64,000 nucleotides of DNA from Promethearchaeota archaeon. GTDB taxonomy: Archaea; Asgardarchaeota; Hermodarchaeia; Hermodarchaeales; Hermodarchaeaceae. Below, piece after piece: positions 612 through 34,310 of this stretch; within the stretch, counting starts at the first letter, position 1; each line of letters starts with the position of its first letter. The stretch lies in assembly GCA_048939625.1 (NCBI GenBank), contig JBHLPH010000004.1, positions 57,473 through 121,472 on the forward strand. Direction: 5' to 3'. The notes beneath the pieces were generated by a model, which was not told where the DNA came from, made no database searches, and saw nothing but the letters and a program-made list of their open reading frames with translations. The translations under genes and the position numbers were made by a program.

Positions 612-776
612 CTAATCCGTCGGCTCGAACATGTCCTTGCCAACGCCGCATACAGGACATACCCAGTCTTCAGGGATATCTTCGAACGCGGTACCTGGTG
701 CGATACCTCCGTCGGAGTCACCGACAGCGGGATCATAGATGTATCCGCACGCTGTGCAGACATATTTCTGTGCCAT
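612..776 (-). CDS. Rubredoxin (54 aa)
   Basis: Read by hand: [54 protein letters not shown]; canonical CxxCGY...WxCPxCG; below ORF-track cutoff. Confidence 0.97.
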
Positions 777-847
777 GCTAGGTCACCTGATTTTGTTGGC
801 TGGTTTCGTCGTTATTATTGTTTGGGTGTTATGAGTAATGCTGCGAT

Positions 848-22095: not shown

Positions 22096-23067
22096 ATGGA
22101 CCTCATCGACAAACAAATTATTTTCGAGCTTCTGATTAGTTATCGCGCCTCGTACCAAGCTATCGCAGAAAAACTCAATTTATCTGTCAATGCTGTTAAA
22201 AAACGATTTGAGAAGTTAAAAAATGTTGGGATAATCCGCGGTGGAGTTTTAGTTCCAATGCCAGTGATGAAAGGAACTGAAGATTGGCTGGCATTATTAC
22301 GAATGGATGAAGCTACAGCTTCAGATGACAGTCTAGAAAAAATTGGGTCTCACGTACTAGTTCAATCGGGAAGCCTTCTGACAGATGGAAGCATCCTCTG
22401 TTTCGGGTTCTATGGCGGAGCACAAGATCTTCAGGAGATAGGGGCTTTTCTCCGCCAAGTTCAAGGTGTCAAATCTGTGGAATTTCATACAATTCTAGCA
22501 CCACAAGGAAAGAAGACTGATTTGGCGAAGAACGATGTAAAGGTACTCCGATGTCTTCGGGAAGCCCCCCGAATCCCGATTAGCAAAATTACTGAAAAAA
22601 CAGGTATAAATTCAAGACGAGTTCGGAATATTCTGCAAAAATTAATTGGAGAAAACGGAGTCGAACCGATCTATTATATTAATTGGAAATCTCAAGGAAA
22701 AACTCATCCGAATGATGTTAGTTTCTTAGTGAGAGTTCATTGGAACCTAAATGCGGGTGGTTATACTGCCTTTATGATTCAGATTCGACACAAGGAAGGT
22801 GTGGAAGAAAGGAAAAAAATTACTGATATTCTGACAGATAATTATTCTTTCGAGTTTTGGTATGCCTATGCTTCTGCATTTGAGCCCGTGATATTCTGTG
22901 TGTTCTTGGTTGAGCACATGAGGGATTCGATAGAAATTGTAAAAACAGTAGAGCAGATTCCTCAAGCAGTTGAGGTGTATCCGATTTTCGGGTATCCTAC
23001 GAAGGTTTTTCGTAGTCAGGTTGATGATTATTTTGAAGGAATTTTCGAGAATATTGATCAGTACTGA
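22096..23067 (+). CDS. Tandem (double) Lrp/AsnC-type transcriptional regulator, paralog 1
   Basis: N-terminal AsnC HTH (DKQII.EL...RASYQAIAEKLNLSVNAVKKR) and second HTH (DVKVLRCLREAPRIPISKI). Confidence 0.85.
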   Translation: MDLIDKQIIFELLISYRASYQAIAEKLNLSVNAVKKRFEKLKNVGIIRGGVLVPMPVMKGTEDWLALLRMDEATASDDSLEKIGSHVLVQSGSLLTDGSILCFGFYGGAQDLQEIGAFLRQVQGVKSVEFHTILAPQGKKTDLAKNDVKVLRCLREAPRIPISKITEKTGINSRRVRNILQKLIGENGVEPIYYINWKSQGKTHPNDVSFLVRVHWNLNAGGYTAFMIQIRHKEGVEERKKITDILTDNYSFEFWYAYASAFEPVIFCVFLVEHMRDSIEIVKTVEQIPQAVEVYPIFGYPTKVFRSQVDDYFEGIFENIDQY

Positions 23068-23163: not shown

Positions 23164-23253
23164 TAAGAGGAAAGCCGGGCCCTGGTTGTCCACCGGTGCC
23201 CCAGAGGCCCGACACGCCGTTTGTCGAACCTCAGGTCCGGTTTCCACCCATCC
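23164..23253 (-). other. Structured 3' RNA of peptide unit U1
   Basis: Arms GCCGGGCCCTGG (23174-23185) and CCAGAGGCCCGAC (23201-23213), then a pyrimidine tract on the minus strand. Confidence 0.55.
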
Positions 23254-23397
23254 TCAGCGAATCATAAGCGGAAGTGCCTGTTCGAGACGTGGACCTGCTC
23301 GGGGATTGGTTCGACATCCAGCAAATAATCGCTCTGCACAGGTCATGCGAGCGACGTGAGCGTGATGATGAAGTTTCCGAGCGGTTTTCTTCTTCAT
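23254..23397 (-). CDS. Basic peptide U1 (47 aa), novel family
   Basis: MKKKTARKLHHHAHVARMTCAERLFAGCRTNPRAGPRLEQALPLMIR; GGAGGT SD; homologous to U2 and U3. Confidence 0.8.
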   Translation of the reverse strand: MKKKTARKLHHHAHVARMTCAERLFAGCRTNPRAGPRLEQALPLMIR

Positions 23398-23446
23398 GTT
23401 GCGTGTACCTCCAAGGTTGTGTTTAACGAAACAGGGATACGGAAAA

Positions 23447-23534
23447 TTAGATATGAATCGATGGGAGCCAATGAGTGCAAGAACAAGCAAAATGAGCAGT
23501 ATTAATGCCTCATTTTGCACAATGTAGTGTAAAG
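23447..23534 (-). promoter_or_regulatory. Shared promoter/operator, copy 1
   Basis: TCGATGGGAGC 23458, AGTGCAAGA 23474, TTTTGCAC-N6-GTGTAAAG 23513-23534. Confidence 0.75.
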
Positions 23535-23581
23535 TTCGAAAAATACTGCTTCAGAATATGAATAGAGGTATCTTGTAGTTG

Positions 23582-23926
23582 TTAGATCCAGCCACGGAAT
23601 TTGGCCAGAATCCACAGAATAGCAAAAGGAGCGATAACCATAAGTTCAATTTGTAAAACAATAATGAAATCCCCTACAGAGGTAGAACCATAGATACTAG
23701 AAGTGGCCACCCCACAGAAGAACGCATTATACCAAACGAAACACATATCAACTATTGTGAAAAGCGCGGCGAGTGTTCCACCCAGATCAAAAAGCCGACA
23801 CCCTTTATTCTTCAGGATACTGAAAATTTGATAAAGTCTTAAGCGAGAATCCTGTGCTTTTCGGGTCGCATTCTGTAAAGTAACAGGTTTGGAACCATTT
23901 GGTTTCTGATTATTAGGGAAAGCCAT
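23582..23926 (-). CDS. Small membrane protein U4 (114 aa, two C-terminal hydrophobic segments)
   Basis: MAFPNNQKP...; GGAG SD; start region identical over 14 nt to U2; shared promoter upstream (ORF track starts at 23983). Confidence 0.7.
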   Translation of the reverse strand: MAFPNNQKPNGSKPVTLQNATRKAQDSRLRLYQIFSILKNKGCRLFDLGGTLAALFTIVDMCFVWYNAFFCGVATSSIYGSTSVGDFIIVLQIELMVIAPFAILWILAKFRGWI

Positions 23927-24000
23927 TTTTGTTCTCCATCCAATTTCGTTGAATTCACCCGAAGACCCGTTCGGGCGTTTCATGCCATTAAAGGTTGATT

Positions 24001-24089
24001 TTACATATCAATCAATGGGAATTAAATCATGCAAAAAAATCGAAGCTACTTAAGGAAAAACTCCTTTTTTTGCGATAGGGGGTTCAAAA
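24001..24089 (-). promoter_or_regulatory. Shared promoter/operator, copy 4
   Basis: TCAATGGGAAT 24012, CATGCAAAA 24028, TTTTGCGA-N6-GTTCAAAA 24068-24089. Confidence 0.65.
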
Positions 24090-24300
24090 AAAGAATCTAT
24101 CTGCTATTAATTTCCATTTGATTAATCTAAGAGGTTCAAAAGTACTAACCATCTTCTTTTTGGAGCAGTTTAATAAAATGTGAATACTGCTTCTTCTTTA
24201 GGCAATTGCAGGAAAAAAAGTCGCTTATCTTGAATTTCAGAATCTAATGTGTTAAGGCTTATAAGGGATTAGAGAGGTTTAGCAGTCGGAGGGTTAAACC

Positions 24301-24429
24301 CTGTCATCAACGTGGTTAAACAATCCTTGGCTGATTGTTCAAGACCCCGGATTTCCCATAATGACGACTATCCTGATTCTCGTGATTATTATCTTAATCA
24401 TTGAAATCTATAAAGTCAGGAAGGATTAG
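24301..24429 (+). CDS. Putative single-TM leader peptide B (42 aa from CTG; internal ATG at 24361 gives 22 aa)
   Basis: (L)SSTWLNNPWLIVQDPGFPIMTTILILVIIILIIEIYKVRKD; GGAGGG 7 nt upstream; TATA-like CTTATAAG at 24258. Confidence 0.6.
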   Translation: MSSTWLNNPWLIVQDPGFPIMTTILILVIIILIIEIYKVRKD

Positions 24430-24471
24430 GTATTCGGGATTCTGATTCGAATTAGTCATATAGGGAACCAC

Positions 24472-24506
24472 GGGAGTTTTATCAACTCCCTCTCCCTCCT
24501 TTTTTT
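24472..24506 (+). terminator. Hairpin + anti-SD tract + T7 terminator/attenuator before the gingipain
   Basis: GGGAGTT/AACTCCC stem, TCTCCCTCC, TTTTTTT (24500-24506). Confidence 0.65.
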
Positions 24507-24643
24507 CAATAGGTTCGAGGTTTTTTCAAACTAAAATTGCCTTTGAATCCAGAGAAGCGAAGATAGTGAGTTTTCCCATATGAAAATAAATAGAATAAAG
24601 ATTACCAATATCAGGATTTGAATTTAGACCTTGAGGGAGAATC

Positions 24644-27600
24644 ATGAGTAGATTTCCTTTGGGCTTAAGTTACGTATTTATTATCATTTTAATTTGCCCT
24701 TCAATCCTAATGCAACCATATTCACCATTGCTTCTTGAAGACTATCCCTATAGTACTCCGAAAGACGCGGAATTTTGTACAGAACCACTAGCTTCCGCAC
24801 ATTTATCTACCTCTAAGCGAGCTTTGCCTATTCAGGGTGGTTCTTGGGTACAATTTCATTCTGAAGCAGAAATCGGGGGAGAGCCAGAGATAACACTTCT
24901 TTCGTCAGATACGATCCGATTAGTAGTCTTACTAGAGTGCCCAGGAATGTGGCGAGATGACATTATATTAAATCATACTGTGTATGACAGACTTGAAATC
25001 ATTTCAGCAGAGTCAACCGCCGATGTTGGTAATCCGAACATCCCTGTTCTGACAAAGATGCTAGAAGTTCCTTATGACATTGATGTTTCAGTCGAACTTC
25101 TCGATTCAGAATATCAGGATTTATCGGATTACCATATTGCACCTAGGCAAGAGTTAGTTTATCCTACTCCATCAATAACGTACCCAAGATTCTTCATTAA
25201 CACAACAGTCTATAACCAGAATTCGTTTTATCCAACCTCACTGACTTGGATTGAAGGAAGTCTAGCAGCGAATCCCATTGTAATCCGTGGCCATCGAATA
25301 ATCACATTGCACTTAGCTCCACTCCAATTTAACCCAGATAGACATATTTGTCGAGTATTTTCAAAGATCAAAGTGGCTGTACGATTTGCCCGACCAGCAG
25401 CAATTGAACCAATAAGTTCTCGGCTTCAGAGCTCGGCTTTTGAGGGAATATTAGAGAATTATCTTCTGAATTATCCTCATGGATTTTACAGCGGACTCTC
25501 AACATTACAGAATACTACTCCTTGGATTCCTCCGATTTGGACAATTCTCCCACCGTCAAAACAGATGCCCACGAGCGGATGCGAGTATCTTATTATTTCC
25601 CATGATGATTTTGTCGAGAAAGTTAGACCATTAGCAAACTGGAAGATTCAGAAAGGCATAACGACAAAACTCATTTCGATTACTGGGGTTTTTAATGAGT
25701 TAAACTGGGTAGTAACGTCTGATCCAGATACTATTAGGAGTGCAGTTTCAGAATACATTCAGTGGGCATACAATAGCTGGGATTTAGTACCAACTTATGC
25801 CCTCCTTGTTGGAGATGAAGCACATATTCCTCCACATTATATGACAATTCATCCACAGTATCTTACATTGAGTCCAACGGACTTAGGATACTTTCAGCTC
25901 GATGGACCCGATTATCTCCCGGAAATGCTGCATGGGCGACTTTCCGTTGACTCTGATACTCAAGCTGAAACCTTTGTCAATAAAATTCTTCAATACGAAC
26001 AGAATGGCGTAACTGATCCAACGGGTAATTTTTATAACAGAATCTGCGCTAGCGCATACTTCCAAGATAGAGATAATAATGGACAAGAAGATCCTGCATT
26101 TCGTCTAACTCAAACTGCTGAAAAGTTTCGAGAGTATGTAACCTCACGTTCGAATCCTTATGATGTGGACTATTTCTATGTTGCAGGAGCGTACAACTTG
26201 GACCCCTTTGCCATTACTCCCTCAACCTATGAAGATGGAACACCCCTTGATTCAAGTTTAGCAGGCCATGATTGGTTCCATCATTTTACACAAGCACAGA
26301 ATGTCATCGATACAATCAACCTTGGATCGTTTTTGCTATTCAATCTTGGCCATGGAGAATCGCGGAATTTTTACCGTCAATCGAATGGCACTTTTGGTCC
26401 ATTTGATGGTTGGCAGTATCCACCCTTTGTAACAGACCAGTTTCACCTGTTGACAAACGGAGACAAACTACCCGTAGTTCTGAGTTTAGATTGTAATACA
26501 GGCTGGTTTGATGAAGCCTACGATTATAGTCCAGCAAATTACGAATCCTTCTCCGAAGAGATTACCAGAAAGGCTGGCGGTGGTGCTGTTGCAGCACTTG
26601 GGGCTTCACGGCCCGTTCAGGCACCCGTGAGCGCGTTAATGCTGGAGGGAATTGCTGATGCAATTTGGGCTGATTATGATGGAAATATCGCCACAGGTGG
26701 TTTGAATAATTTGGGACAGATCATCCACTATAGCAAGATGCTAGTTATGGAACAATGGGGATATTTGGGTGAAGAATTGTGTTCTGTAAATACATTTGAA
26801 CTCTACCACCTTTTTGGAGATCCAGAGATGCCATTATGGACGCAAGAGCCTGAGGATCTGGAGGTTTATTATCCAACACATATTGGCATGGAGGGAGAGC
26901 AACGCTTTGTTGTCCAAGTGACTCGGAGCGGATTTCCTATTGGTTCAGCAAGAGTCTGTCTTCAAAAAGGCGGAGAGTTATATGCAGTGAATTTCACGGA
27001 TTCTAGAGGTTATGCGTATTTTTCAGTTAATCCCATAACAAGTGGATCTATGAATTTGACCGTGACAGCTAAGAACCATCTTCCATATACCACAGTAATT
27101 TTCGTTACCAGTGGTGGAGGAGTTCAGTTAAGTCGAGCCTCTGGGGCTGGAGAAACCACGATTACTATCACTGGAACAAAATTTACAAGTGCTAATATGG
27201 TCCATCTCTTCATAGGAAACCCATGGGAAGAAGAGGGAAGTGGTCAGGTACCTGTGGATGGGAGAGTTGAATTCACCTATACAATTCCAAGTGAACAAAC
27301 AGAACCACTGAATTTTTGGCTCCGTGAAATCCAAGTTATAAGTATTGATCCTCCGATTATTTTCACAGTCCGTGCCGGCGTTTCCTATTACTCACCGTAT
27401 TTTGAAGCTCCAGATTTGTATACCTATTGTCAATGGAATGAAGAAACATGGCATTTGAATCCTAAAGGATCATCTGCCAATGAGAATCCCTGTTGGGATA
27501 ATCCTTCGATAGAGGTGAAAGATGATCAGGGAAATGTAGTTACATCAGGAAACTTACAAATTGGTTCTATCTATACTATTCATGCTGATATACACAACGC

Positions 27601-28243
27601 AGGACCAATTCATGCAAATAACGTCAAAGTGTTCTTCAACTGGTCTAGATGGGGAATTGGCCAAGTGACTTGGCATGCGATAGGAAATGACACAATTGAT
27701 GTCCTGCCTTGGGGTCAGTCGATGGCTGTAATGGTCTTTGTGCCAACTGTTGAAGACATGATTTGTATTCGAGTAGCAGTATCACATCCTGAAGATAGCA
27801 ATCCTTACAATGATTGGGGTGTTGAAAACACCTTAGCACTCTTCACTCCGGACCGCATCGGCATCGAATTGCCAGTCTTCAACCCAACTTCCAGAGAAAG
27901 CCATATGTTTATCCAATTGACTCAAGATAACATATTAGGTGCTTTGTGGACAGCATCAGTTGATCATATTTCAGATTCACAACTAGGACCAAGTGAATCA
28001 ACTAATATCATAATCAGTTTCGTTATCCCAGACGATGTTAGAGAAGGTGATATGCACAATTTCACAATAAACGCCTTTATCGAACAATATATCACAGGGG
28101 GAGTCAGTATTTGTCTAACGAAAAGACCGCCTCAATTAGTGATACCATGGCACCTAATCCTCCCGCTAATTGTTTTAGTGATTATCAGTATTATCATCGT
28201 ATTCGTTTTTAAGAAGCGCTTTCGAGAAAGTGATGAAAATTAG
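24644..28243 (+). CDS. C25 (gingipain) family cysteine peptidase, secreted, C-terminally membrane-anchored
   Basis: Signal-like N-terminus; propeptide (G.P..P); EYLII, YALLVGD, GRL, LGHG (His), SLDCNTG (Cys), LFGDP; Ig/CARDB-like domains; TM + KKR. Confidence 0.9.
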   Translation: MSRFPLGLSYVFIIILICPSILMQPYSPLLLEDYPYSTPKDAEFCTEPLASAHLSTSKRALPIQGGSWVQFHSEAEIGGEPEITLLSSDTIRLVVLLECPGMWRDDIILNHTVYDRLEIISAESTADVGNPNIPVLTKMLEVPYDIDVSVELLDSEYQDLSDYHIAPRQELVYPTPSITYPRFFINTTVYNQNSFYPTSLTWIEGSLAANPIVIRGHRIITLHLAPLQFNPDRHICRVFSKIKVAVRFARPAAIEPISSRLQSSAFEGILENYLLNYPHGFYSGLSTLQNTTPWIPPIWTILPPSKQMPTSGCEYLIISHDDFVEKVRPLANWKIQKGITTKLISITGVFNELNWVVTSDPDTIRSAVSEYIQWAYNSWDLVPTYALLVGDEAHIPPHYMTIHPQYLTLSPTDLGYFQLDGPDYLPEMLHGRLSVDSDTQAETFVNKILQYEQNGVTDPTGNFYNRICASAYFQDRDNNGQEDPAFRLTQTAEKFREYVTSRSNPYDVDYFYVAGAYNLDPFAITPSTYEDGTPLDSSLAGHDWFHHFTQAQNVIDTINLGSFLLFNLGHGESRNFYRQSNGTFGPFDGWQYPPFVTDQFHLLTNGDKLPVVLSLDCNTGWFDEAYDYSPANYESFSEEITRKAGGGAVAALGASRPVQAPVSALMLEGIADAIWADYDGNIATGGLNNLGQIIHYSKMLVMEQWGYLGEELCSVNTFELYHLFGDPEMPLWTQEPEDLEVYYPTHIGMEGEQRFVVQVTRSGFPIGSARVCLQKGGELYAVNFTDSRGYAYFSVNPITSGSMNLTVTAKNHLPYTTVIFVTSGGGVQLSRASGAGETTITITGTKFTSANMVHLFIGNPWEEEGSGQVPVDGRVEFTYTIPSEQTEPLNFWLREIQVISIDPPIIFTVRAGVSYYSPYFEAPDLYTYCQWNEETWHLNPKGSSANENPCWDNPSIEVKDDQGNVVTSGNLQIGSIYTIHADIHNAGPIHANNVKVFFNWSRWGIGQVTWHAIGNDTIDVLPWGQSMAVMVFVPTVEDMICIRVAVSHPEDSNPYNDWGVENTLALFTPDRIGIELPVFNPTSRESHMFIQLTQDNILGALWTASVDHISDSQLGPSESTNIIISFVIPDDVREGDMHNFTINAFIEQYITGGVSICLTKRPPQLVIPWHLILPLIVLVIISIIIVFVFKKRFRESDEN

Positions 28244-28311
28244 GATTTTTCAATAAGTGGAAAGAAAACAAATGTGCCATACTCTATTTATAGTCGTGAA
28301 GACCACAGAGT

Positions 28312-28327
28312 GTGGATTCGGACCTTT
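28312..28327 (+). promoter_or_regulatory. 16-nt element GTGGATTCGGACCTTT upstream of Lrp paralog 2
   Basis: Identical copy at 29510-29525; both lie 25 nt after a TTTAT box. Confidence 0.65.
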
Positions 28328-28409
28328 AGGGCGTTCTACAAGCAGAATGGAGTAAATTAGTGATTTAAGTTCTCCATATGACCTCAACATATACCTTAAC
28401 GTGATTGTT

Positions 28410-29378
28410 ATGGATCTGGTTGACAAGAACATTGTGTTCGAGCTTTCCGTCAATTATCGTGCTTCATATCAGACGATTGCCAAGAAACTAAATCTTTCTG
28501 TGAATGCTGTCAAGAAACGTATTGAGAAACTAAAGGAGAGTGGAATAATTCGGGGAGGTTTATTACTTCCAATGAATGCAATGTTGGGGATGGAAGATTG
28601 GATAGCCATTTTGCATACTAAAAACCCCACCCCTTCAAGTAATTTTCTTGACACATTGGGAAAACATCCATTGATGACTGCCGCAAGTATTCTTACAGAT
28701 GGAAGTATTTTGTGCCATGGGAGTTACTCAGGAGCATATGGTCTTCGAGATATTGGATCGTTTTTACGGCAGATACCTGAAGTGGACTCTGTAGATTTTC
28801 ATACACTTCTCTCTGTGCCAGGGAAACGTTGTGAATTATCAACTGCTGACTTGAAAGTCCTGAGATGTCTCTACGAAGAGCCTCGAATTTCTATTATAGA
28901 TATTTCTAAAAAAACTGGCCTTAGTCCTCGCCGGATTCGAATGAGCATACACGAATTAATAGGTGAAAACGGCTCCGAACCGGCTCTATACTTGGAGTGG
29001 GAGCCGAGGGGTGGTTCTCGTCCTGAAGAGGTTAGTTTTAAGGTTTCAATTCACTGGGATTTGAATGCTGGTGGATATACGGCATTCATTATGATGATTC
29101 GACACGAAGAGGGGAGTGTGTCACAGTCTAAGATTGTTAGAATGTTAAAAGAACAGTATCCAATGGATTTTTGGTATGCATATGCCTCGGCGTTTGAGCC
29201 TGTGATTTTTTGTATTTTTGTCGTTGAACACTTACGAGACGCTACAAACATTGCAAATACGATTCGGAAAATCCCTGAAGCGATTACTGCAAATACGATT
29301 TTTGGTTATCCAACTAAACGATATCGAAGTCCTATTGATGACTATTTTGAAGAACTTTTCAAGCAGATCGACGACTAA
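28410..29378 (+). CDS. Tandem Lrp/AsnC-type regulator, paralog 2
   Basis: Same two-HTH architecture; shared LTDGSILC, LNAGG, FWYAYASAFEPVIF. Confidence 0.87.
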   Translation: MDLVDKNIVFELSVNYRASYQTIAKKLNLSVNAVKKRIEKLKESGIIRGGLLLPMNAMLGMEDWIAILHTKNPTPSSNFLDTLGKHPLMTAASILTDGSILCHGSYSGAYGLRDIGSFLRQIPEVDSVDFHTLLSVPGKRCELSTADLKVLRCLYEEPRISIIDISKKTGLSPRRIRMSIHELIGENGSEPALYLEWEPRGGSRPEEVSFKVSIHWDLNAGGYTAFIMMIRHEEGSVSQSKIVRMLKEQYPMDFWYAYASAFEPVIFCIFVVEHLRDATNIANTIRKIPEAITANTIFGYPTKRYRSPIDDYFEELFKQIDD

Positions 29379-29509
29379 TTAGGGTTTTCACAACCTAATC
29401 GCTTTCCCTTCATTTTGCTTTACGTCTAATTTGATACTGATGTCATCAGTAGTTAGGGGGTCCTTTTAGGTGAGCCGAACAAATTTTATGCTTTAAAATA
29501 GTGGTGTAA

Positions 29510-29525
29510 GTGGATTCGGACCTTT
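29510..29525 (+). promoter_or_regulatory. 16-nt element GTGGATTCGGACCTTT upstream of Lrp paralog 3
   Basis: Identical to 28312-28327. Confidence 0.65.
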
Positions 29526-29610
29526 GAGACAGCATTGGGTGGTTTTGTTAAGACAATACAGTCTTCAAGCTACTATCCTGCTAGCTGCAAAAAGGCATTA
29601 AGTGGTGGCA

Positions 29611-30582
29611 ATGGACGCCGTGGACAAGAACATCATTTTCGAGCTATCGACAAACTATCGTGCTTCATATCAGGCTATTGCTAAGAAAATGGATCTTTCA
29701 GTGAATGCTGTTAAGAAGCGAATTGAGAAACTCAAAGAAAGTGGAGTAATTCGGGGTGGGTTATTACTTCCTATGAGGGCAATGTTGGAGATGGATGATT
29801 GGGTTGCCTTATTACGCACTGAAGATCCAATTCCTTCTGATCAGTTTCTTGATGTTATTGGGGCACATCGGTTAGTGGGATCTGCGAGTATTCTTACGGA
29901 TGGTAGTATTTTGTGTTTTGGGTGGTACCCTGGCTCTTCAGGGCTTGAGGAAATTGGTACATTCTTGCGTTCAACTCCTGGTGTTGAGTCGGTGGAATTT
30001 CATACGATTCTTGCGGATCCTGGGAAGCGCTGCGAGTTGTCTGTATCTGACGTGAAGGTGCTTCGATGTTTGCATAAAGAGCCACGGATGTCAATTAGTG
30101 ATATTTCTAATGAAACGCGCCTTACGCCCCGCCGTATTCGGAAAATCATTGATGCGTTAATTGGTGAAAATGGTTCAGAGTCCAATATCTATTTGAATCA
30201 CCCGTCCAGAGGGGGGAAGCGACCAGAAGAGGTATGCTTTCAACTAAGTTTGCGTTGGAATTTGAATGCTGGGGGACATACCGCATTTGTAATTATAATT
30301 CGCCATGAAGAGGGGGCCCAACCCCGTTCAAAGATTGTGGATATTCTCAAGGAGAACTTTCCGGTGAAATTTTGGTATGCGTATGCATCAGCCTTTGAGC
30401 CGGTGATTTTTTCTGTGTTCGTGGTTGAGCATATGCGCGAAGCCAGTGAAATCATTGAGACAATTCGTAAGACGCCTGAAGCGATTTCAGCGAATGCAAT
30501 CTATGGATATCCTTCACGAATATTTCACAGTCCCATAGATGATTACTTCGAAAAGCTCTTCAAACGACTAGAAAGAGACTAA
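29611..30582 (+). CDS. Tandem Lrp/AsnC-type regulator, paralog 3
   Basis: Close paralog of 28410-29378. Confidence 0.87.
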   Translation: MDAVDKNIIFELSTNYRASYQAIAKKMDLSVNAVKKRIEKLKESGVIRGGLLLPMRAMLEMDDWVALLRTEDPIPSDQFLDVIGAHRLVGSASILTDGSILCFGWYPGSSGLEEIGTFLRSTPGVESVEFHTILADPGKRCELSVSDVKVLRCLHKEPRMSISDISNETRLTPRRIRKIIDALIGENGSESNIYLNHPSRGGKRPEEVCFQLSLRWNLNAGGHTAFVIIIRHEEGAQPRSKIVDILKENFPVKFWYAYASAFEPVIFSVFVVEHMREASEIIETIRKTPEAISANAIYGYPSRIFHSPIDDYFEKLFKRLERD

Positions 30583-30616
30583 AGCAGTGAAAGTTTTGAC
30601 ATAAGGAAAAGGTCTG

Positions 30617-31393
30617 TTAGAGGTCCCAATCATATTTTGTGAAGAAGAAAGGATAACAGTCATCAGGTTTGAGTTCTTCAAGAGTTTCAGCAGGTAATAA
30701 CCAGATATCAGTCTGAGAAGTGTAAGCAGCTGTTGTGACTTCGAGAACTGGGATTTCATGAATTGGATCATCGAGGGACTTGTTGAGTTTAAGCTCACCG
30801 GGTCCGATTTCAATTGGCCCGTAATTGATTTTGTTAAGTAAACGGAGTAGTCGAGGATGGTTATCGACGGAAATGCCATCTATACCGGGGAAAGCTTTGA
30901 GCAGAAACCAAGGAGTTGCACTAAAGGCTTCTGGGAAGGGAGTCTGCATGATTGCTTTAATTTCGATTATAGGGATACCATGGCGGGTACACACACCATG
31001 TACAGCATTTCCTTTGCGTGTGAGCGTGATTGAATCTGCGATTTTTTTGGGAAATCCATATAATTCACGTCCTGCGGCCATAGCGAGATCATTATCAACG
31101 GGCATGGCGAGGCAATAGCTTCCCTGTTCATTATTATATTGGACTTGCACGGAGAGTGCGGCTTCGTTGTAGGGAGCAATGAAGTTAGGTTCGAGAAATT
31201 CCGCGACATATGCTGTTCCTAGCGCTTCGGGGGAGGGTTCCAGTGGAGGGGGAATTATGCGTTTAATGACTTGGAGGTCAGTTTTGAAAATTACCATTAA
31301 CATGTTGACCTTACCGAGGAGGAAGCCCTGTGCAAATTTCTTGCTTCGCTTTTTGAGGTCGTCTCGGGAGTGGACTAAACTCATTATAGACAC
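30617..31393 (-). CDS. Acetoacetate decarboxylase (ADC) family protein
   Basis: IPPPLEP, PYNEAAL, AAGRELYGFPKK with the Schiff-base Lys. Confidence 0.88.
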   Translation of the reverse strand: MSIMSLVHSRDDLKKRSKKFAQGFLLGKVNMLMVIFKTDLQVIKRIIPPPLEPSPEALGTAYVAEFLEPNFIAPYNEAALSVQVQYNNEQGSYCLAMPVDNDLAMAAGRELYGFPKKIADSITLTRKGNAVHGVCTRHGIPIIEIKAIMQTPFPEAFSATPWFLLKAFPGIDGISVDNHPRLLRLLNKINYGPIEIGPGELKLNKSLDDPIHEIPVLEVTTAAYTSQTDIWLLPAETLEELKPDDCYPFFFTKYDWDL

Positions 31394-31404
31394 CGGTTTG
31401 TATT

Positions 31405-32169
31405 CTAAGCTGGCTTTGTATTAAAGCGCTTAGTGTGTCGGTGTCGAAAAACAAAAGTAATTCCGAAAAGGATGACTAGCAATAAAACTCCAAGTCCTAG
31501 CCAAAACAGTGTTGTGTAGTTTTGTTCTTCGAGAGAAAGAATTCCTAAGGTATGGAAGTTGCTGGCTGTTAGTTCACGTGTGACGCGATATGTGTAGATT
31601 GCGTGTTGAGAGGCGAGGAGCTCGTAGGTATACTTGAGAAGAATTCCCTCCGTGTAGTGGAAGTACCAGTTTTCGCTACATTGTTGAAAATCGTCATCAA
31701 TCGAAAACCATGCAACTGATTGGACTCGCCAACAGAGAAAGGTTCCGAATTCAAGAGAGATGTAGCTTGATGTGAGAGGGTAATTCCCTGTATACGGGGA
31801 GAAAGCCACAGAATGCCCATGGTGCCATCTGGAAGTATTGACCCAAAGTGGAGGTTGGAGAGGTCTTTCAAGCAAAGTTCCATTTAATAATATGATTCGC
31901 CATGTTGAACTATTGAGGAACATTTCCCCCTGCAATATATCCTCGTTAGTGGACGAGATATTGATGAGGAAAAGCGAGTTACGTTGCACTGATGTTGCCG
32001 ATTGGATTGTGAACTGTTCATCCCATTCACCCTGCAGGTCATCAGTTACATGGTAGTTGAGAAAAAGCCCAGTGGGTAAAGATGCAAGCCTAGTCGGGAT
32101 AGAAATTAAGAATGACAGTAATATGACGAATAACACAAACCGAATTCGTTTCTTTCTTAAAATCCTCAT
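31405..32169 (-). CDS. Secreted, C-terminally membrane-anchored hypothetical protein
   Basis: MRILRKKR + hydrophobic signal; C-terminal TM + basic tail (ORF track starts at 32205). Confidence 0.75.
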   Translation of the reverse strand: MRILRKKRIRFVLFVILLSFLISIPTRLASLPTGLFLNYHVTDDLQGEWDEQFTIQSATSVQRNSLFLINISSTNEDILQGEMFLNSSTWRIILLNGTLLERPLQPPLWVNTSRWHHGHSVAFSPYTGNYPLTSSYISLEFGTFLCWRVQSVAWFSIDDDFQQCSENWYFHYTEGILLKYTYELLASQHAIYTYRVTRELTASNFHTLGILSLEEQNYTTLFWLGLGVLLLVILFGITFVFRHRHTKRFNTKPA

Positions 32170-32185
32170 CGTGAACCCTTCAGTG

Positions 32186-33163
32186 TCAAAGATTGGCATG
32201 GGCAATCATTTCATCAATCATTGATTCGCGTAATCCAACATATTTTCGGAGAGGAAAGCTGACCCAAATCTCAACCTTCGAGATATTAGGTGCTTTTCGT
32301 ATCACGGGAAGGATTTTTTCGGATTCACGAATGTGGTTTACAATGAAGACACAATAGATAATCGGTTCAGTGGCAGCAACAAAGGAAAACCAGAATTCGA
32401 AGGGGAAGTGGCTTTTGAAGTATTGGACAACTCCTTCAGGAGATCCTTTGCCTTCTTCCCAGTTAGTTCGAACAACAAACGCATTACCGCCTCCTGCATT
32501 AAGGTCCCAGTAGATGCGAAAATGTAAGGCAGCTTTGGATTGGCTAATTTCCGGTTTGTATTCTTTATCAACAAGAGTTTCGATGGGAGTTCCAACCTTG
32601 CCATGAAAGTCTTGGATGACGCTGCGAATGCGTCGAGGTGTTAAACCAGTTTGCTCTGAAATTTGTGAGATAGGCATCCGTGCATCCTCTCGTAGAGATC
32701 GGAGGACTTTCAAATGTCCGTCTGTCATAGGAATTTTTTGACCACGATCTGCAATGAGAGTGTGAATTTCAACGTTCGCGACGCCTGGCAGTTGGCGAAG
32801 AAATCCACCGAGTTCAGATAGACCTTGTGCTCCGATATATTCTGCGAAGACGAGGATGGATCCATCAGAAAGATAACCAGCACTGAAAACGGATGGATGT
32901 GCACCTATGCGGTCTAGAAATTCTGGACTGAAATGGGTGTCGCTAAGAGTGATTCGGGCAAGGAACCATTCAGCGTCCATCATGGCTAGACTGAGATACA
33001 CATAATATCGTTGGATAACTCCTTCTTCTTCCAGTTTCAATATTCTTTTCTTCACAGCGTTCACTGTAAGGTCTAGCCGAGTTGCGATTGTTTGATAAGT
33101 GACTCGACAGTTGGTTGCGAGTTCGAGAAGAATGCTTTTGTCTACAATATCCAATGGAGGCAC
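32186..33163 (-). CDS. Tandem Lrp/AsnC-type regulator, paralog 4 (more diverged)
   Basis: LDIVDKSILLEL..NCRVTYQ, LSDGSIL, WDLNAGG, FWFSFVAATEP. Confidence 0.85.
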   Translation of the reverse strand: MPPLDIVDKSILLELATNCRVTYQTIATRLDLTVNAVKKRILKLEEEGVIQRYYVYLSLAMMDAEWFLARITLSDTHFSPEFLDRIGAHPSVFSAGYLSDGSILVFAEYIGAQGLSELGGFLRQLPGVANVEIHTLIADRGQKIPMTDGHLKVLRSLREDARMPISQISEQTGLTPRRIRSVIQDFHGKVGTPIETLVDKEYKPEISQSKAALHFRIYWDLNAGGGNAFVVRTNWEEGKGSPEGVVQYFKSHFPFEFWFSFVAATEPIIYCVFIVNHIRESEKILPVIRKAPNISKVEIWVSFPLRKYVGLRESMIDEMIAHANL

Positions 33164-33324
33164 CTTATCTTGGGGGTTGACCTGAATTGGCTGTTCTCGG
33201 ATATATTTACGAGGAATGGCGAAGCTAGTCTTTGGATTCTCCGTTGTCAGGAATTCAGCGAGATATAATTCGTAAGCACTCCGGTTTAATCCTTTTGAAA
33301 TGTAGCATGCCTTTTGAATGCCCT

Positions 33325-33528
33325 AATAAAAAATAAATAAAAAAGCCGGGTCTTCAGGGTATCCTTCCCCTCCATTTCGGCACTTCCCGGTCCGTGCGCA
33401 TGGGTGGCAATGGACCATTTTGGACAACGGATTCGGAGTTTTCGTCCGGTTACCGAGAAGACCCGGCTAAGGTCAGCGTCCAAGGTCCGTGTCACTGGTG
33501 TGTCAGTGTCGATCCCTAGTAATCATGA
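33325..33528 (-). other. Structured 3' RNA and U-rich terminator of peptide unit U2
   Basis: Perfect 12-bp inverted repeat AGCCGGGTCTTC (33344-33355)/GAAGACCCGGCT (33457-33468) enclosing ~100 nt; A-rich tract 33325-33344. Confidence 0.7.
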
Positions 33529-33651
33529 TTAGCGTCGTGAAGTTACGACAGCAAAGGTGATTCGGTCTCGTGGAGTGCCTTTGGGGTTTTTCGCACCGGT
33601 AACAGCGCGTTCTGCAAGGGCCATTTTGGCAATTTTCTTTTTCGGAGCCAT
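33529..33651 (-). CDS. Basic peptide U2 (40 aa), novel family
   Basis: MAPKKKIAKMALAERAVTGAKNPKGTPRDRITFAVVTSRR; GGTGA SD; not in ORF track. Confidence 0.82.
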   Translation of the reverse strand: MAPKKKIAKMALAERAVTGAKNPKGTPRDRITFAVVTSRR

Positions 33652-33700
33652 TTTTGTTCACCGTCCCGCCGATGCGAGACAATGATACCTAACCCGAAAA

Positions 33701-33788
33701 TTGCATATTATTCGATGGGAGCTTGTCAGTGCAAAAATCCGACAAAAAGAGAGAGAGTGTGCCAACTTTTGCACTAAGTGGTGCAAAA
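33701..33788 (-). promoter_or_regulatory. Shared promoter/operator, copy 2
   Basis: TCGATGGGAGC 33712, AGTGCAAAA 33728, perfect TTTTGCAC-N6-GTGCAAAA 33767-33788. Confidence 0.8.
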
Positions 33789-33825
33789 ATCAGGAACGCA
33801 CCCTGAAAAGGACTTGGGTGGGAGT

Positions 33826-34009
33826 AAACCGGGCCTACGAAAGCTCCCGACCACAAGAACCACGAAATTAGATCACCCGTTGCTGAATCGCTACTGCGCC
33901 GATTCCCCAGCAACAGGAAGAGGAACAAGTGGCGGTTGTGTAGGCCCGATTGACGTGGCTGCAAGGGGTTTTTGGTGATCGTTTCTTCACCATAGGGATT
34001 CCTCACAGC
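33826..34009 (-). other. Structured 3' RNA of peptide unit U3
   Basis: CGGGCCTAC (33830-33838)/GTAGGCCCG (33940-33948) closing stem; inner GTTGCTG/CAGCAAC and GAATCG/CGATTC; second stem 33957-33966/34001-34010. Confidence 0.7.
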
Positions 34010-34150
34010 CTAGCGTCGGCTAAGGACCAGCATGACTGCATATCGAGTCCGAGGTTTTGCTACCGGATGGGGGTTACGGCAGCCGGCTACGGCACGTTCA
34101 GTCGCCGACATATCTGCTAGTTTCTTATGTTTATGTTCGGATTTGGCCAT
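34010..34150 (-). CDS. Basic peptide U3 (46 aa), novel family
   Basis: MAKSEHKHKKLADMSATERAVAGCRNPHPVAKPRTRYAVMLVLSRR; GGAGGG SD; not in ORF track. Confidence 0.82.
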   Translation of the reverse strand: MAKSEHKHKKLADMSATERAVAGCRNPHPVAKPRTRYAVMLVLSRR

Positions 34151-34222: not shown

Positions 34223-34310
34223 TTTGATAAGAATCGATGGGAGCAGCCGAGTTCAAAATCCCGCAATTTCCACTTTTGGATTCAGAAATCTTGAACTTCG
34301 CAATGCAAAA
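34223..34310 (-). promoter_or_regulatory. Shared promoter/operator, copy 3
   Basis: TCGATGGGAGC 34234, AGTTCAAAA 34250, TCTTGAAC-N6-ATGCAAAA 34289-34310. Confidence 0.75.

Follow-up and report, generated by a model that had tools for sequence, protein, structure and literature searches.

The DNA analyzed here, a stretch of 64,000 nucleotides (nt) from contig JBHLPH010000004.1 of a Promethearchaeota archaeon in the order Hermodarchaeales (hereafter the window), contains three paralogous genes for tiny basic proteins, abbreviated as U1, U2 and U3, each of which is followed on its sense strand by a GC-rich structured RNA. These elements are genuine conserved multi-helix RNA domains that form the 3'-terminal part of the presumed sense transcripts, and their family has so far been found only in one order of Asgard archaea. 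We favor the interpretation, with a probability of roughly 0.55, that they are autonomous RNA modules in 3' untranslated regions (UTRs), acting through their conserved loops.

Structured RNA domains behind three microprotein genes

A Shine-Dalgarno (SD) box precedes each of the three reading frames, and the differences among orthologues fall mostly at the third codon position (57/30/215 at positions 1/2/3 for the U3 type and 113/70/268 for the U2 type, with 166/128/536 and 81/48/373 in two further peptide subfamilies); U1, U2 and U3 are thus true coding genes. Their 3' RNAs had been described in an earlier note on this DNA, and all three stems lie where that note placed them (table 1). The arms of the closing helix P1 in U2, AGCCGGGUCUUC (33468-33457) and GAAGACCCGGCU (33355-33344), form 12 perfect base pairs (bp) around 101 nt, and RNAfold assigns the whole domain -68.5 kcal/mol (z score -3.2), a value that none of 200 shuffled sequences equaled. 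Its interior contains the near-invariant blocks AUCCGUUGUCC, GGUCCAUUGCCACCCAU, GGACCGGGAAGUGCC and AUGGAGGGGAAGG. The P1 of U3 has 11-12 bp, again around 101 nt, with nested helices (z score -4.0, 0/200 shuffles) that include a long P2 hairpin (33917-33876, CCUGUUGCUG.../...CAGCAACGGG) and a P4 hairpin, while the additional 10-bp stem reported at the U3 stop codon does begin at the G of TAG (34010-33957). In both units the RNA is longer than the open reading frame (ORF), as had been claimed, with ~185-190 nt versus 123 nt in U2 and 141 nt in U3. Runs of U follow P1 in most orthologues of the B (U2-like) type, the stems of which continue into U6-8, whereas for the A (U3-like) type the stem runs into just U2-3 in each of the five orthologues listed.

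A structured RNA with a closing stem had been proposed for all three units; U2 and U3 have such domains of 123-125 nt, whereas U1 has a shorter hairpin with a competing fold. The hairpin proposed for U1 (23213-23201 with 23185-23174) is present, with -24.5 kcal/mol when folded alone and UUUCCUCUU next to it, but in the minimum-energy fold of the whole U1 3'UTR (z score -2.0) the segment GUCGGGCCUC (23213-23204) pairs instead with the upstream segment GAGGUUCGAC (23232-23223). Because the same segment has this competing partner, we consider U1 a shorter and ambiguous version of the element; the two U1 orthologues examined can form either pairing. Of note, U1 is convergent with the gene of a 323-aa AsnC-type regulator (22096-23067, plus strand), so that read-through would yield RNA antisense to the regulator.

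Table 1. Features of the microprotein and RNA family. Coordinates are positions in the window unless prefixed by a genome or locus label (G..., L...).
Feature	Position	Strand	Remarks
U3 microprotein gene, A type, 46 aa	34010..34150	(-)	ATG 7 nt behind GGAGGG
U3 linker hairpin, 10-bp stem with inner GGUGA/UCACC hairpin	33957..34010	(-)	kept in orthologues
U3 3' RNA domain, A type, 123 nt	33828..33950	(-)	P1 33950-33940 with 33838-33828
U2 microprotein gene, B type, 40 aa	33529..33651	(-)	SD box, third-position bias
U2 3' RNA domain, B type, 125 nt	33344..33468	(-)	P1 33468-33457 with 33355-33344
U-tract behind U2 domain (U6, then more U-runs)	33322..33344	(-)	likely transcript end
U1 microprotein gene, C type, 47 aa	23254..23397	(-)	SD box
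U1 3' RNA	23165..23253	(-)	GUCGGGCCUC pairs downstream or upstream
H-type RNA domain, ~165 nt	own genome G000:C9:32196-32362 = L072:497-663	(-)	found by covariance model
Subfamily A			U3-like
Subfamily B			U2-like, mostly in tandem with A
Subfamily C			U1-like
Further peptide subfamilies			C29-like, E, F, D1, D2, plus second-genus types

Distribution, covariation and strand

The order comprises 19 genomes of two genera, all of them metagenome-assembled genomes (MAGs) that are 72-91% complete, from which we gathered 61 distinct peptide units; ~36 of these have a domain of 100-140 nt closed by CGGGYCUUC/GAAGRCCCG. A strict search pattern recovered 15 loci in 12 of the 19 genomes, every one downstream of a peptide gene (the reversed control gave 0), and its only matches among 381 other genomes of the phylum were three loci with unrelated interiors. 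With covariance model R1, which combines P1 with a sequence profile, 45 elements were detected in 17 of the 19 genomes, ~36 of them behind a peptide gene. There are ~5-6 copies per genome, and they occupy fixed orthologous positions ~60 nt past stop codons. Rfam 15 has no match in the window at the gathering threshold and, around the three units, gave matches at chance level only when E values up to 10 were admitted (E 1.3-7, 8-16 bits); the scan for tRNA and tmRNA found none, and only 3 contigs matched when the invariant B block was compared with metagenomes, with no sign of a transcript among them.

The architecture of the family consists of a long P1, usually CGGGYCUUC/GAAGRCCCG, a P2 with a conserved 5' CCGUUG and further helices presenting single-stranded blocks, usually with a U-tract a few bases past P1. 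Several subfamilies have in common the motif AUCCGUUGYC, which is the 5' strand of P2 and has CAACGG, CAUUGG or AAUGG as its partner, as well as the motifs (A/U)AGGUCCA, UGCCACCYAU and GGGAAGUGCC.

The peptides belong to an equally restricted family. No Pfam family matches U1-U3 at E values up to 0.1, nor does any family of NCBIfam, and a profile built from 21 family members retrieved 22 representative proteins among 1.84 billion, all of 40-88 aa. The genome of the window encodes six paralogues, and the profile has matches in 17 of the 18 remaining genomes of this taxonomic family, as opposed to none in 22 genomes belonging to other families in the phylum. The microproteins are very basic and are predicted to form two short helices, although the confidence of the AlphaFold2 model (pLDDT 69) is too low to inform.

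The earlier note had further claimed that the closing stems vary in sequence yet keep pairing, and this is borne out across 26 elements from 7 subfamilies, in which pairing in P1 amounts to 90.7%, with 32 compensatory cells. Absence of covariation beyond a simple terminator stem had been set beforehand as the result that would refute the proposal; such covariation is present, since the interior helices covary too. For the A type (8 orthologues), RNAalifold identifies 34 pairs across P1, the long P2 hairpin and a further hairpin, 10 of which show compensatory change; 93.4% of the cells are paired, versus 29-48% when the partners are slid, and the covariation score was reached by none of 500 shuffles. 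The D1 type shows a replacement of UGCUGG/CCAGCA by AGCCGA/UCGGCU in helix P3. The interior of the B type has a pairwise identity of 0.82-0.93, compared with 0.70-0.86 for the coding sequence and 0.15-0.35 for the downstream spacer. Since interior helices covary and interior single-stranded blocks are conserved at or above the level of the coding sequence, the elements go beyond simple stability stems and are conserved structured RNAs. Pairs of the G·U kind exceed those of the A·C kind (44:5, 23:3, 15:5 and 20:8), which indicates that the structure is read as RNA on the peptide-sense strand. Indels of 1, 2 and 4 nt, which are not multiples of three, led us to reject a coding function of the domains; a reading of the B domain as the 5' leader of the gene downstream was also rejected, as that neighbor is not conserved.

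Independence from the peptide and possible modes of action

The covariance model also detected a domain without a linked peptide gene, the H type (table 1), the interior of which is homologous to that of D1 whereas its closing helix is different (ACGGCUCCC/GGGAGCCGU). The H domain starts 5 nt past the stop of a gene for a 406-aa secreted, membrane-anchored protein, here labeled a putative serine hydrolase on account of an SxxK motif (FSCTKS) read by eye. Genomes G010 and G013 lack the 1.2-kb coding sequence of the hydrolase but keep the H RNA at 83-84% identity, compared with 65% for the upstream flank; hence the RNA domain is independent of the upstream coding sequence. In a search with a sequence model of the D1/H core, 11 of the 15 first-genus genomes covered had exactly two copies each, and genomes elsewhere in the order had none. 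Moreover, the D1 and D2 peptides, the cores of which share ~80% identity as judged by eye, precede unrelated 3' RNAs, D2 having two unrelated hairpins, while the E and D1 peptides differ and yet have the P3 module in common. The RNA types do not track the peptide subfamilies. The H class, the case of the missing hydrolase and the D1/D2 contrast are new in the present analysis.

In the interpretation that we favor, the RNA domain would be carried in the 3'UTR as an autonomous module, the closing helix P1 of which would provide an exonuclease-resistant end; with its end thus protected, the domain is proposed to persist with or after the mRNA. The domains would act through their conserved loops (ACCUCUUGG, CCCCUCC, UGCCACCCAU and UGGAGGGGA), which could base-pair with other RNAs or serve as a platform for proteins, possibly the microproteins themselves in trans. 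In the D1 and H types, the loops are rich in C and U and reminiscent of an anti-SD sequence; the 3' end of the host 16S rRNA is not part of the assembly. The large loop of the D1, H and E types contains CCCCUCC and ends with the invariant ACCUCUUGG, whereas B, F and C29 have GGAGGG instead. The H loop sequence UCCCCUCCA (within the loop AAUCCCCUCCAACC of L072) exactly complements the invariant B-domain segment UGGAGGGGA (33376-33364) and, by sequence inspection, comes close to complementing the ribosome-binding sites of the A and C29 genes (UUGGAGGG), as well as the UUGGAGGGAU ribosome-binding site of U3-type genes (34172-34160).

Several points weigh against this interpretation. Transcription, 3' ends and processing would all be deduced from the SD boxes, the strand test and the U-tracts, and a stabilizer or terminator would be expected to have the same location at the end of the transcript, the same strong stem and the same U-tract. 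The structures were chosen by RNAalifold on the peptide-sense strand, which biases the G·U counts; the alignment rows are related, coming from MAGs of two genera, and the covariation counts are therefore not independent events; and the interiors of the B and H types are too invariant for their helices to be proven. Anti-SD-like 5-mers are weakly enriched (62 vs 44.7 ± 8, counts that are not independent across orthologues), and RNAduplex comparison of whole B and H elements produced long spurious duplexes and no clear signal. In view of the latter result, the 9-nt complementarity between B and H can be taken as a lead only.

The earlier note had offered a dual-function RNA, a processed noncoding RNA or a binding site for the peptide encoded upstream. 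The first two remain the best class, given the covariation and the conserved interiors, whereas the third is weakened by the lack of a peptide gene at the H domain, by the D1/D2 contrast and by the RNA types not tracking the peptide subfamilies. We consequently regard as possible, but rather unlikely, that each basic microprotein binds the RNA behind its own gene, forming a cognate ribonucleoprotein (RNP) particle or exerting feedback on the mRNA. Such an arrangement would suit the position of most model matches behind a peptide gene, the confinement of the peptide and RNA families to the same order and the very basic peptides with their two predicted short helices, and it has a precedent in bacterial CcaF1, which binds the CcsR RNAs from its own 3'UTR (PMC8034643). 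It fits poorly with an H domain that survives the loss of its upstream coding sequence, with closely similar D1 and D2 peptides preceding unrelated RNAs and with the common P3 module of the differing E and D1 units; binding in trans may nonetheless occur. Somewhat more doubtful still is an Asgard-specific RNP or riboregulatory system, in which stable modules released from mRNA 3' ends would act with the basic microproteins; the anti-SD-like and SD-like loops might then pair mutually and with ribosome-binding sites on mRNAs of the family itself, and the outcome would be translation control of a small regulon.

It is improbable that the elements are plain 3' structures for stability or termination, that is, GC-rich stems protecting a short mRNA from 3' exonucleases or aiding the formation of its end. 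They do lie at the transcript end, with U-tracts behind B, H and many D1 elements, and the earlier note had cautioned that the rubredoxin gene (612-782, minus strand) carries a smaller but similar 3' stem; a hairpin is indeed present there, but it is a plain one of 7 bp. A contiguous long-range stem of at least 12 bp follows 1.3% of 300 ordinary ORFs of the same genome, as opposed to 34% of the 61 peptide units; over the 190 nt that follow the stop, the peptide units have a median folding z score of -2.45 and the controls one of -0.40, with a GC content of the 3' regions of 48% and 42%, respectively. Strong 3' structures are thus not a general habit of this genome. The persistence of the RNA without its coding sequence, the covarying interior helices and the single-stranded blocks conserved above coding level also speak against a plain stabilizer, and a simple terminator is difficult to reconcile with the short U2-3 tails of the A type, as archaeal termination depends on the U-tract, the hairpin being unnecessary (cf. 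PMC8716108).

A conditional 3' switch, in which alternative folds choose between termination and read-through (antisense into the convergent regulator for U1, into U2 for U3), is a minor and very unlikely option that would apply mainly to U1. One segment has both an upstream and a downstream partner available in U1 and two of its orthologues, and the A domain is situated between two genes in tandem, without a strong U-tract; nevertheless, no conservation resembling a ligand pocket was seen in U1, the downstream genes are not conserved and the search for alternative folds covered U1 and these two orthologues. A DNA-level feature, such as miniature-transposon inverted repeats or protein-binding palindromes, might be suspected from perfect 12-bp inverted repeats ~100 bp apart in several copies per genome, but is scarcely credible given the compensatory changes in arms of unconserved sequence and the G·U over A·C asymmetry, which signifies a single-strand reading; transposon repeats in particular were rejected on the basis of the fixed orthologous sites, the compensatory arm changes and the presence of just 5-6 copies per genome.

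Other RNA classes were rejected as well. The P1 of U2 and U3 is, by inspection, an uninterrupted helix of 11-12 bp, unlike the bulge-helix-bulge substrate of archaeal circular RNAs, in which a 4-bp helix separates two 3-nt bulges; a C/D box small RNA (sRNA), with a 5' C box (RUGAUGA) and a 3' D box (CUGA) joined by a terminal stem, would need a D box after P1, which is missing in D1 and E units despite a C-box-like GAUGAUGUCAC 5' of P1; and H/ACA RNAs and type III toxin-antitoxin systems were dismissed by eye on their anatomy.

Related systems and neighboring features

The closest described system is the bacterial CcaF1/CcsR, to which we found no homology. CcaF1 is a DUF1127 protein encoded with the CcsR 'cuckoo' RNAs in Rhodobacter and relatives (PMC8034643). 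As in the family reported here, structured RNAs occupy the 3'UTR of a gene for a small basic protein, there are paralogous, duplicated loci, and the link between some RNA copies and the protein gene is only weak. C-rich loop motifs bear some resemblance to anti-SD sequences (CCUCCUCCC in CcsR, CCCCUCC and ACCUCUUGG in our D1 and H types), such 5-mers being only weakly enriched in our family. However, the two belong to different domains of life, the present peptides have neither DUF1127 nor any other Pfam match, and scans of the window and of the three units gave no Rfam match to the cuckoo/ar14 models. The RNA is here a single multi-helix domain of ~100-165 nt with a long closing helix, whereas CcsR consists of tandem two-hairpin sRNAs, and any processing or peptide binding comparable to that of CcsR and CcaF1 would be hypothetical.

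A coding part and a structured RNA sharing the 3' end of an mRNA are also typical of bacterial 3'UTR-derived sRNAs, such as CpxQ, SroC and DapZ, and of dual-function RNAs, such as RNAIII/hld and SgrS/SgrT. These act with Hfq/RNase E or are experimentally defined, and no homology was found between them and the present family; to our knowledge, archaea do not have the Hfq/RNase E factors of those bacterial systems. An intrinsic terminator, the hairpin of which is not required for archaeal termination, resembles the B type in having a GC-rich stem followed by a U-run. This class was rejected because the stems enclose at least 100 nt of conserved multi-helix RNA and the A type is without a U-run, even if the B type has U6-8.

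The elements constitute a well-supported and uncatalogued structured RNA family, with at least 45 instances, that is tied to an equally uncatalogued family of microproteins and includes a natural deletion in which the RNA is kept without the coding sequence. Asgard archaea are the closest prokaryotic relatives of eukaryotes and, as far as we know, very few regulatory RNAs have been described in them; our literature searches found no description of such 3' RNAs in these organisms. The family provides a tangible starting point for the study of post-transcriptional control in Asgard archaea and a possible archaeal counterpart of bacterial pairs of small proteins and 3'UTR-derived sRNAs, its reach being limited by a narrow distribution (one order, 19 MAGs) and by a function that we infer.

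Additional features were observed around these loci. D1 and E units, L006 (~1790) and L024 among them, have a conserved C-box-like sequence, GAUGAUGUCAC(A/G)AAC, 5-6 nt ahead of P1, which could be a processing or protein-binding site; B units have GCUGACC at the same site, just 5' of the closing helix. The D1 units (L006:1614-1800, plus strand, L022 and L079) have a second conserved small ORF of ~26-28 aa between the peptide gene and the RNA, which ends with ..NGSNKDYFVYSLIL(A/S)RR or ..HSKNNFVYTLVLVRR and thus has the same -RR terminus as the peptide family. Peptide genes of the second genus (L019, L021 and L034) are followed by a different conserved 3' hairpin, with interior CUGAAYCCGARAGNGGGU..CGGGA and covarying closing stems (GGCUGGGGG/CUCCUAGCC vs GGCGGCGGG/CACGCCGCC).

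Upstream of the peptide genes, a box of the form GCUCCCAUCGA(U/A)U..UAU is found ~100 nt before each start (~23447-23470, ~33712-33740 and ~34230-34250 in the window, minus strand), and repeats of the TTTTGCAC type occur farther upstream of U1-U3 and also before second-genus peptide genes (L047 and L048). The window additionally encodes four paralogous proteins of ~325 aa, each with two AsnC/HTH_24 winged-helix domains (22096-23067, 28401-29378 and 29602-30582 on the plus strand, 32186-33163 on the minus strand). Relatives of these proteins are also encoded next to peptide or RNA loci of other genomes and next to the hydrolase locus, where a paralogue lies just upstream.

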